From Escherichia coli (GTDB lineage Bacteria > Pseudomonadota > Gammaproteobacteria > Enterobacterales > Enterobacteriaceae), in the NCBI RefSeq assembly GCF_011045215.1, contig NZ_CP049201.1: DNA of 64,000 nt; one strand, given 5' to 3'. The notes below the pieces were generated by a model. That model saw only the letters and a program-made list of their open reading frames with translations, did no database searches and was not told the DNA's origin. How positions within the stretch are numbered: the first letter of the stretch is position 1; every line of letters starts with the position of its first letter. The position numbers and the translations under genes are program-made. Shown in pieces: positions 43,278 to 43,490 of the stretch.

Positions 43278-43349
43278 AGCGGGTAGCGGGAATCGAACCC
43301 GCATCATCAGCTTGGAAGGCTGAGATAATAACCATTATACGATACCCGC
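43278..43349 (-). tRNA. tRNA-Gly (anticodon UCC), phage-encoded, no encoded CCA
   Basis: Minus strand GCGGGTATCGTATAATGGTTATTATCTCAGCCTTCCAAGCTGATGATGCGGGTTCGATTCCCGCTACCCGCT folds as cloverleaf; anticodon loop CUUCCAA; resembles T4 tRNA-Gly. Confidence 0.8.
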
Positions 43350-43352
43350 ATA

Positions 43353-43428
43353 TGGTGCCGACTACCGGAATCGAACTGGTGACCTACTGATTACAAGTCA
43401 GTTGCTCTGCCTGCTGAGCTAAGTCGGC
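43353..43428 (-). tRNA. tRNA-Thr (anticodon UGU), phage-encoded, CCA encoded
   Basis: Minus strand GCCGACTTAGCTCAGCAGGCAGAGCAACTGACTTGTAATCAGTAGGTCACCAGTTCGATTCCGGTAGTCGGCACCA; anticodon loop CUUGUAA; 3-nt spacer to tRNA-Gly. Confidence 0.8.
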
Positions 43429-43430
43429 GT

Positions 43431-43490
43431 TGGTTCCTCGGGAGTGAGATGAGATGCCCCGATACATAATGTATCATTCCCTCGGAACCA
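43431..43490 (-). other. Structured ~60-nt element (compound hairpin) just upstream of tRNA-Thr
   Basis: Outer stem GGTTCC...GGAACC plus inner hairpin GATACAT-A-ATGTATC; not a complete cloverleaf. Confidence 0.35.

Follow-up and report, generated by a model that had tools for sequence, protein, structure and literature searches.

The window, by which we mean the whole 64-kb stretch of DNA analysed here, lies in the Escherichia coli chromosome, as placed by Rfam matches to MicC (9268–9388), RalA (58855–59033) and FnrS (63343–63460). Taken together, these matches put the full-length lambdoid prophage of the window at the rac locus. According to Pfam, the late region of this prophage reads on the minus strand, to which all features below belong unless stated otherwise, as a DUF1367 gene, a YbcO gene and a DUF1133 gene, followed, after about 1.2 kb with no credible gene, by Phage_holin_8, Phage_holin_3_7 and a GH108 endolysin. 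The DUF1133 gene (44145..44807, E = 4.6e-105) is a Q-like late regulator gene, with a weak match to Phage_antitermQ of 25.5 bits against a cut-off of 26. The two holin genes and the endolysin, which carries a PG_binding_3 domain, make up the lysis cassette (41576..42906); the Phage_holin_8 gene begins at 42906 and runs downwards. The gap between the regulator and the lysis cassette holds a pR'/tR'-like region, a predicted promoter, a 58-nt hairpin, two tRNA genes, a branched trailer and an intrinsic terminator.

ARAGORN identified exactly two tRNA genes in the window, tRNA-Thr(UGU) at 43353..43428 and tRNA-Gly(UCC) at 43277..43349, and the Rfam model RF00005 scored them at 69.8 and 65.4 bits, respectively, compared to its gathering score of 29 bits. 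An earlier note on this DNA had proposed both genes, the 3-nt gap between them, and their position between the Q-like gene and the lysis cassette, where 933W-type phages carry tRNAs; all of these points hold, the gap reads TAT, and the 933W record has its ileZ-argN-argO genes at the same position. As the note also stated, tRNA-Gly lacks an encoded CCA, with CTCC standing after the gene; tRNA-Thr has one. Both tRNAs are already present in the NCBI annotation of near-identical prophages, and Thr and Gly tRNAs are mentioned in a paper on Stx2f phage. A plus-strand ORF of 66 aa (43190..43390), which appears in the list of open reading frames, covers all of tRNA-Gly and part of tRNA-Thr in antisense, matches no Pfam family and is indeed spurious.

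The note's further claim, that the tRNAs resemble those of phage T4 rather than those of E. coli, was overturned by pairwise comparison. tRNA-Thr is identical to E. coli thrU at 74 of 76 positions (97.4%) and to T4 tRNA-Thr at 60 of 76 (78.9%), and tRNA-Gly matches glyT at 69 of 75 positions (92.0%) and T4 tRNA-Gly at 62 of 75 (82.7%). The only differences between tRNA-Thr and thrU are two U-to-C changes in the D-loop, and those between tRNA-Gly and glyT include a compensated acceptor pair, C6-G67 to U6-A67. The apparent resemblance to T4 arises because thrU and glyT are themselves 82–84% identical to the T4 genes. Host identity is also evident among 178 related Thr-Gly modules, in which the Thr gene equals thrU exactly in 104 and the Gly gene equals glyT exactly in 60; the TAT spacer is kept in 177 of them, and the encoded CCA is missing in 7 of the Gly copies, all of the window's lineage. 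In a megablast search with the region, 5,420 of 5,426 complete E. coli genomes matched via the tRNA part, at 80–99% and mostly 95–99% identity; T4-like phages reached only about 82.5%. Judged by these identities, the two genes are near-exact copies of host thrU and glyT and not T4-like.

The host thrU-tyrU-glyT-thrT operon has the same order, Thr then Gly, and near-identical tRNA bodies, so the pair looks as if it had been captured from that operon with loss of tyrU. In contrast to the operon, which has tyrU between thrU and glyT, the window contains neither tyrU nor the host spacers, its promoter and leader are unrelated to those of the host (TTGCAT-17-TAGAAT-GCGCGC), and its Gly copy, unlike host glyT, has no CCA. 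The view that these are T4-type genes, horizontally related to the T4 cluster and accompanied by a processing signal within the pR' late transcript, is very improbable. It can draw on blastn matches of T4-like phages to both tRNAs at about 82–83% identity, and on the fact that T4 has both tRNA-Thr(UGU) and tRNA-Gly(UCC) and co-transcribes non-tRNA structured RNAs (the small stable species 1 and 2) with its tRNA cluster; some T4 tRNAs also lack an encoded CCA. However, the host genes are closer at both loci, many phage copies are 100% identical to them, the T4 genes (79–83% identical to those of the window) differ in gene order and context, the window hairpin has no similarity to T4 rnaC or rnaD, and it has a conserved promoter of its own ahead.

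Directly upstream of the tRNAs, 3 nt (AAC) before tRNA-Thr, lies a hairpin of 58 nt (43432..43489; 60.5 bits with the covariance model R1). The earlier note had described it as a compound hairpin of about 60 nt that is not a full cloverleaf. Folding agrees and sets the exact span, with a minimum free energy of -23.8 kcal/mol and z = -3.36 (none of 200 shuffled sequences folds as well), and neither ARAGORN nor Rfam calls a tRNA. From the outside inwards, the hairpin consists of helix P1a (GGUUCC/GGAACC), a 2x2 GA/GA internal loop, helix P1b (GGGA/UCCC) and a variable interior that in the window holds an inner hairpin, GAUACA-UUA-UGUAUC. In folds of the entire precursor, it persists as a separate domain.

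Comparison of related hairpins indicates that selection within this element acts on the outer helix only. All types share a 6-bp GGUUCY/RGAACC helix, a 2x2 purine loop (GA/GA in 24 of 28 distinct variants, AA/GA in 4) and a second helix of 3–7 G-C or G-U pairs, and RNAalifold recovers the outer helix alone, the interiors being unrelated between types. Over the 28 variants, the outer helix is 96.8% paired and slid registers pair at 74% or less; three of its pairs show compensatory change (C-G/U-A, G-C/A-U), wobble pairs occur at three positions (U-G 3, G-U 12 and 8), and none of 500 shuffles reaches the observed covariation score. The invariance of the five outermost pairs is partly due to ascertainment, as they were fixed by two of the search patterns used. 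A third scan, keyed on the Thr-Gly junction alone and thus free of this bias, returned 104 standard hairpins and three divergent ones. One of the divergent hairpins (locus L218) has both arms changed together, to AGUUC/GAAUU, and in those of L153 and L162 the GA/GA loop is replaced by Watson-Crick pairs (U-A and C-G).

The hairpin appears to be an undescribed element, as far as Rfam and literature searches show. No Rfam 15 family matches 43432–43489 on the minus strand at E<=10 or the homologous hairpin of locus L008 at E<=1, and at the same limits the tRNA model matches neither; literature searches, some of them poorly targeted, returned nothing on it. Covariance model R1 finds no further copy in the window, and over 81 related loci it adds only three copies, all of them linked to tRNAs and none at other positions. 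Two simple identities were rejected. An intrinsic terminator would be followed by a U-run, and here AAC and tRNA-Thr follow; the hairpin is also absent from the terminator scan. A K-turn, with its tandem sheared G-A pairs beside a 3-nt bulge, does not fit the symmetric 2x2 loop, which has no bulge, nor the loci L153 and L162, which have no GA/GA loop.

A predicted sigma-70-type promoter precedes the hairpin at 43496..43523, with a -35 hexamer TTGCAT (43518–43523), a 16-nt spacer and a -10 hexamer TATTAT (43496–43501). The seventh base after the -10 hexamer, G43489, is the predicted start and also the base at which the hairpin begins. Fifty-three distinct upstream regions, belonging to at least six unrelated sequence types, were obtained from scans of viral contigs. 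In 52 of these regions, the best sigma-70 match is TTGnnn-16-TAnnAT, ending 6–8 nt before the hairpin, and the hexamers and the 16-nt spacing are kept despite spacer sequences that are unrelated between types. The match averages 8.9 of 12 positions, compared to 6.8 in shuffled sequences, and reaches at least 9 of 12 in 87% of regions versus 4% of shuffles. A consensus scanner independently called the same site in L003, L006 and L008; the copy in the window was not listed because its -35 hexamer matches at only 3 of 6 positions, which is below the threshold of the scanner.

This conservation strongly suggests a promoter dedicated to the tRNAs, and with its fixed placement 6–8 nt upstream, the hairpin is probably the 5' leader of a transcript specific to the cassette and not part of the pR' transcript. 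The earlier note was right in placing the tRNAs in the late leader of a lambdoid prophage, and the hairpin may, as it suggested, be a processing signal or small stable RNA. A reading of the hairpin as part of the pR' transcript probably does not stand, the conserved promoter just upstream having been overlooked in the note.

The late promoter itself is more plausibly sought directly after the Q-like gene, at 44040..44140, where a pR'-like region is combined with a tR'-like hairpin/U-run terminator (about 44040–44090). This sequence is conserved in phage 683R6 downstream of its DUF1133 gene, and weak Rfam matches of the leader or terminator type fall at 44037–44125. The consensus scan of the window called no promoter-like site at 44040–44140; the promoter part of the assignment is thus tentative, drawn from position, conservation with 683R6 and analogy to 933W. 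Locus L003 has an equivalent terminator after Q, and a terminator stands between Q and the tRNA promoter in the window, L003 and L008, so pR' transcripts would end before reaching the tRNAs if Q is not acting. It is improbable that the promoter ahead of the hairpin is pR', both because of this conserved unit and because the same promoter and hairpin occur behind three types of Q, behind stx2f and behind a methylase gene.

On the 3' side, tRNA-Gly is followed by a trailer (43146..43246) that is predicted to fold into a branched structure closed by CAGCACUG (43239–43246) and CAGUGCUG (43155–43162) and followed by U8 (43146–43153). The fold is weak when taken alone (z = -1.76), and the strict terminator scan of the window did not call this region. 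Its closing elements are conserved: GCACUG, about 30 nt after Gly, pairs with CAGUGC about 80 nt further on, next to the T-run, and all three are invariant in five divergent trailers, one of which comes from a copy without tRNAs. The cassette transcript probably ends, or is terminated, at this trailer. A canonical intrinsic terminator, GCCCGTCTCCTGACGGGC followed by a T-run, was found by the terminator scan at 42957..42974, just upstream of the holin gene, with equivalents in L006 and L008. A long covarying stem likewise lies beyond the GCACUG/CAGUGC pairing.

The module of hairpin, tRNA-Thr, TAT and tRNA-Gly is found in a variety of phage backgrounds. It follows a DUF1133 Q-like gene in the window and in C5, 52F4 and 683R6, a different antiterminator of 273 aa in CAU16175 and JP538, stx2f in 2015C-4136CT1 and phi467, and a DNA methylase gene in ST2350 and SerU-LTIIb. 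E. coli C5 (NZ_CP010122) shows 98% identity to the window in this region. The lysis cassettes downstream differ as well, and no protein gene travels along; from this distribution, the module is evidently mobile among lambdoid phages. Among the 5,426 complete E. coli genomes, the promoter-plus-hairpin unit occurs as type A (16), type B (209) and type C (30), and it is never annotated there. A scan of species-representative genomes gave a single match, on a short MAG contig, and is uninformative on spread across taxa. Loci L026 and L064 contain, besides a normal module, a second copy with the promoter, an intact hairpin and the trailer but without tRNAs; a strict link of the hairpin to tRNA processing therefore does not exist. 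In L126, an intact hairpin adjoins a decayed tRNA-Thr.

The closest known counterpart is the tRNA cassette of phage 933W, whose annotated record gives the order Q, pR', qut, terminators, a site labelled 'pT; putative tRNA promoter', ileZ-argN-argO, a terminator and stx2. Both cassettes occupy the late leader, beyond Q, pR' (a pR'-like region in the window) and terminators, both have a putative sigma-70 promoter of their own with a -10 hexamer TATTAT, and both consist of tandem tRNAs for rare codons with a terminator before the next genes. They differ in cargo, which is Ile, Arg and Arg tRNAs in 933W and Thr (UGU) and Gly (UCC) tRNAs in the window, and in the leader: in 933W only about 8 nt of leader separate the promoter from the first tRNA, whereas the window has the conserved 58-nt hairpin in between. 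In the related Met-X-Thr-Gly clusters, too, the leader is about 8 nt long and contains no hairpin. Because these promoters work with hairpin-free leaders, the hairpin would not be needed for tRNA expression in general.

We therefore favour, with somewhat better than even confidence, a self-contained tRNA expression cassette (a moron) of 933W-like architecture, in which transcription start, processing, codon supply and the role of the hairpin would be connected as follows. Transcription would start at G43489 from the sigma-70 promoter at 43496–43523, and the first 58 nt of the RNA would fold so that its 5' end pairs with the nucleotides immediately ahead of tRNA-Thr. Cleavage by RNase P, 3 nt past the helix, would release tRNA-Thr(UGU) and then tRNA-Gly(UCC). 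Since tRNA-Gly has no encoded CCA in the lineage of the window, its maturation would require trimming of the 3' end and the CCA-adding enzyme. In lysogens, the transcript would end at the branched stem with U8 (43146–43246) or at the pre-holin terminator. During lytic growth, Q-modified polymerase would read through the cassette from upstream, and the prophage would thus gain extra decoding capacity both as a lysogen, from the cassette's own promoter, and in lytic growth, by Q read-through.

The likeliest benefit of such a cassette, as suggested by the anticodons, is a supply of tRNAs for the codons ACA and GGA. tRNA-Thr(UGU) decodes ACA and tRNA-Gly(UCC) decodes GGA/GGG, codons that E. coli uses rarely. 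In the codon-usage check, the late ORFs of the prophage used GGA at 14.3 and ACA at 13.7 per 1000, compared to 7.9 and 11.5 in the flanking host ORFs, a small sample of six; this contrast lends modest support to codon supply. Many phage tRNA copies are identical to the host genes, so any benefit would be one of dosage only. A link to tRNA-cleaving defence systems, which act on Lys, Asn and Thr tRNAs, is disfavoured, because most copies are identical to the host tRNAs.

Within the favoured cassette reading, the hairpin would clamp the 5' terminus and thereby shield and insulate the precursor, and on read-through from upstream it would provide the RNA upstream with a protective hairpin at its 3' end. 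Its function would probably be end protection or insulation of folding: an end-sequestering helix is favoured because only the helix is conserved and because it begins at the predicted 5' end. A 5' stabiliser would begin within a few nt of the 5' end of its transcript and prolong the half-life of the RNA; in the predicted geometry, the -10 hexamer ends 6–8 nt before the helix in all 53 variants. The 5'-terminal stem-loops that serve as stabilisers include the E. coli ompA 5' hairpin and the phage T7 phi10 leader. These have in common with the window hairpin a helix at, or about 2 nt from, the 5' end (here a predicted one), and conservation of the helix without conservation of the interior can be counted as a further likeness. 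In contrast to the ompA and T7 phi10 stem-loops, which protect mRNAs, the window hairpin should be removed from its tRNAs by RNase P. The clamp role is accordingly weakly supported, because RNase P should detach the hairpin and because other cassettes have none. Detachment by RNase P weakens a simple stabiliser role in particular, and the enzyme might even be slowed by a helix that comes within 3 nt of its cleavage site.

The most serious rival, though a distinctly less probable one, is that the tRNA pair was inserted into a separate prophage gene for a small RNA, made up of promoter, hairpin and branched terminator, and that the hairpin of about 60 nt, carrying a 5' triphosphate and freed by RNase P, acts in trans. 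The second copies in L026 and L064, with promoter, hairpin and a trailer of the form GGCACUGGCG...CAGUGC plus U-run and no tRNAs, would produce an RNA of about 190 nt, and the hairpin beside the decayed tRNA-Thr of L126 is intact; with its paired ends and 3-nt tail, the freed hairpin should resist exonucleases. However, the tRNA-less copy is rare (2 loci), always stands beside a tRNA-bearing copy and may be a deletion derivative of it. The interior of the hairpin, where a targeting sequence would sit, is unconserved between types, no Rfam family matches, and in the window the leader has no antisense match longer than 11 nt, a length inside the 10–13 nt range of shuffled leaders. A broader version, to which we give slightly less weight still, regards the promoter, 5' hairpin and branched terminator as an unrecognised family of prophage small-RNA genes that serves as a vehicle for captured host tRNAs, the hairpin, freed by RNase P, being a stable RNA with its own function, for example a decoy or sponge for a host factor. 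About 5% of complete E. coli genomes would contain a member of the proposed family.

It is unlikely that the hairpin is a site of protein binding or cleavage, either a nut/put-like antitermination site ahead of the lysis genes or an RNase III site. Its position is reminiscent of the HK022 put and lambda nut RNAs, structured RNAs placed right behind a phage promoter and ahead of terminators; here too the hairpin adjoins a promoter and terminators lie downstream, before the holin gene. The stem sequence is moreover conserved beyond what pairing requires, and the purine 2x2 loop resembles a recognition motif. That motif is, however, replaced by Watson-Crick pairs in L153 and L162 and, having no 3-nt bulge, makes no K-turn. 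The window hairpin has no sequence or Rfam relationship to the put and nut RNAs and is a single closed helix, where HK022 has two put stem-loops and lambda a boxB hairpin. Unlike antitermination in the put/nut setting, constitutive antitermination at this hairpin would carry transcription into the lysis genes and should harm or kill the lysogen. No protein gene travels with the module, and a helix of 12–14 bp is short for RNase III.

Less probable again is a decayed third tRNA gene without present function. The slot upstream of tRNA-Thr does hold an Asn tRNA in JLK-2012 and a Lys, Arg or other tRNA in the Met-X-Thr-Gly clusters, and the element ends in ...ACCA plus 2 nt, like the upstream tRNA (...TCCAGT). 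Yet no tRNA is detected at this position by ARAGORN, or by the Rfam tRNA model at E<=10, both C residues of the putative CCA are engaged in base pairs, and the compensatory changes and the promoter at fixed distance indicate ongoing selection on the helix. Finally, a DNA palindrome (an operator, recombination site or module boundary) is hardly credible: the GGTTC...GAACC inverted repeat shows high conservation and lies at the border of a mosaic module, but its arms are about 45 nt apart, and the conserved, non-complementary GA/GA and the G-U wobbles fit RNA pairing rather than half-site symmetry.

In summary, the tRNA cassette is of an ordinary phage kind, and the hairpin alone is undescribed. 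The analysis corrects a wrong attribution, in that the tRNAs are host-captured and unrelated to T4, and it extends the 933W-style autonomous late-leader tRNA cassette to the thrU/glyT pair, which many prophages of E. coli carry, Stx2f and LT-II toxin phages among them. The hairpin would represent a small new RNA family if it functions beyond protection of RNA ends, and otherwise an ordinary leader. In either case, a predicted and probably constitutive promoter has been identified inside the late regions of toxin-converting phages.

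The presence of MicC (9268-9388), RalA (58855-59033) and FnrS (63343-63460) places the window at the rac locus of E. coli, and the prophage that it carries is far larger than the rac remnant of K-12.

Two related loci contain tRNAs that are derived from the host gene thrU but carry other anticodons, namely UCU in phage SerU-LTIIb (L009, 1122-1197), where the tRNA is called Arg, and UUU in locus L159 (3480-3555), where it is called Lys. Because the remainder of each copy is nearly identical to thrU, the shifted anticodons look like switches inside a captured tRNA. The second tRNA of clusters of the Met-X-Thr-Gly and 933W types keeps its body, and its anticodon differs from phage to phage (L010, 2422-2498; L143, 4098-4171; L145, 2532-2604; L146, 9538-9614; L213, 3695-3767; L223, 1706-1782). 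ARAGORN assigned the anticodons UUU, UCU, UCG, AAA and UUA across these clusters, the last being of the stop (ochre-suppressor) type, together with one loop that could not be assigned.

Within the tRNA cassette of the window, a 10/12 match to a sigma-70 promoter (TCGGCA-16-TATAAT, 43334-43361, minus strand) runs from the 3' end of tRNA-Thr into the D-arm of tRNA-Gly. This match recurs in all loci scanned and probably arises incidentally from the sequences of the tRNAs. On the minus strand 5' of the cassette promoter (43560-43660) are three copies of TTTAGTA and a hairpin, CCCCCUUUUUAGGGGGG (~43585-43601).

Downstream of the tRNA trailer and ahead of the holin gene, the minus strand (42945-43097) carries a 13-bp long-range stem, CAGAAUGAGUCGU...ACGACUCAUUCUG, which covaries with its homologues in the related phage 683R6 and in locus L026. 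The terminator 3' of this stem gave weak, below-threshold Rfam matches to STnc100 (20 bits) and AgvB (22 bits). The region may encode a small RNA of the prophage, placed 5' of the lysis genes.

The leader hairpin also occurs apart from a normal tRNA-Thr. Loci L026 (7090-7320) and L064 (2380-2600) have a tandem extra copy, directly 3' of a 348-aa methylase ORF, that comprises the promoter, the hairpin and the GCACUG...CAGUGC/U-run trailer but no tRNA; the predicted RNA would be ~190 nt long with structured ends. In L126 (~1700-1800, minus strand), an intact hairpin variant adjoins a tRNA-Thr that has diverged too strongly to be called by ARAGORN any longer. At the second Thr-Gly copy of SerU-LTIIb, the GGUUC hairpin is absent, and an unrelated AU-rich hairpin, GGAAUUUUC-AUAAU-GAAAAUUCU (~2990-3027), ends 2-3 nt 5' of tRNA-Thr. 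This second copy hints at a preference for some helix directly 5' of the RNase P site.
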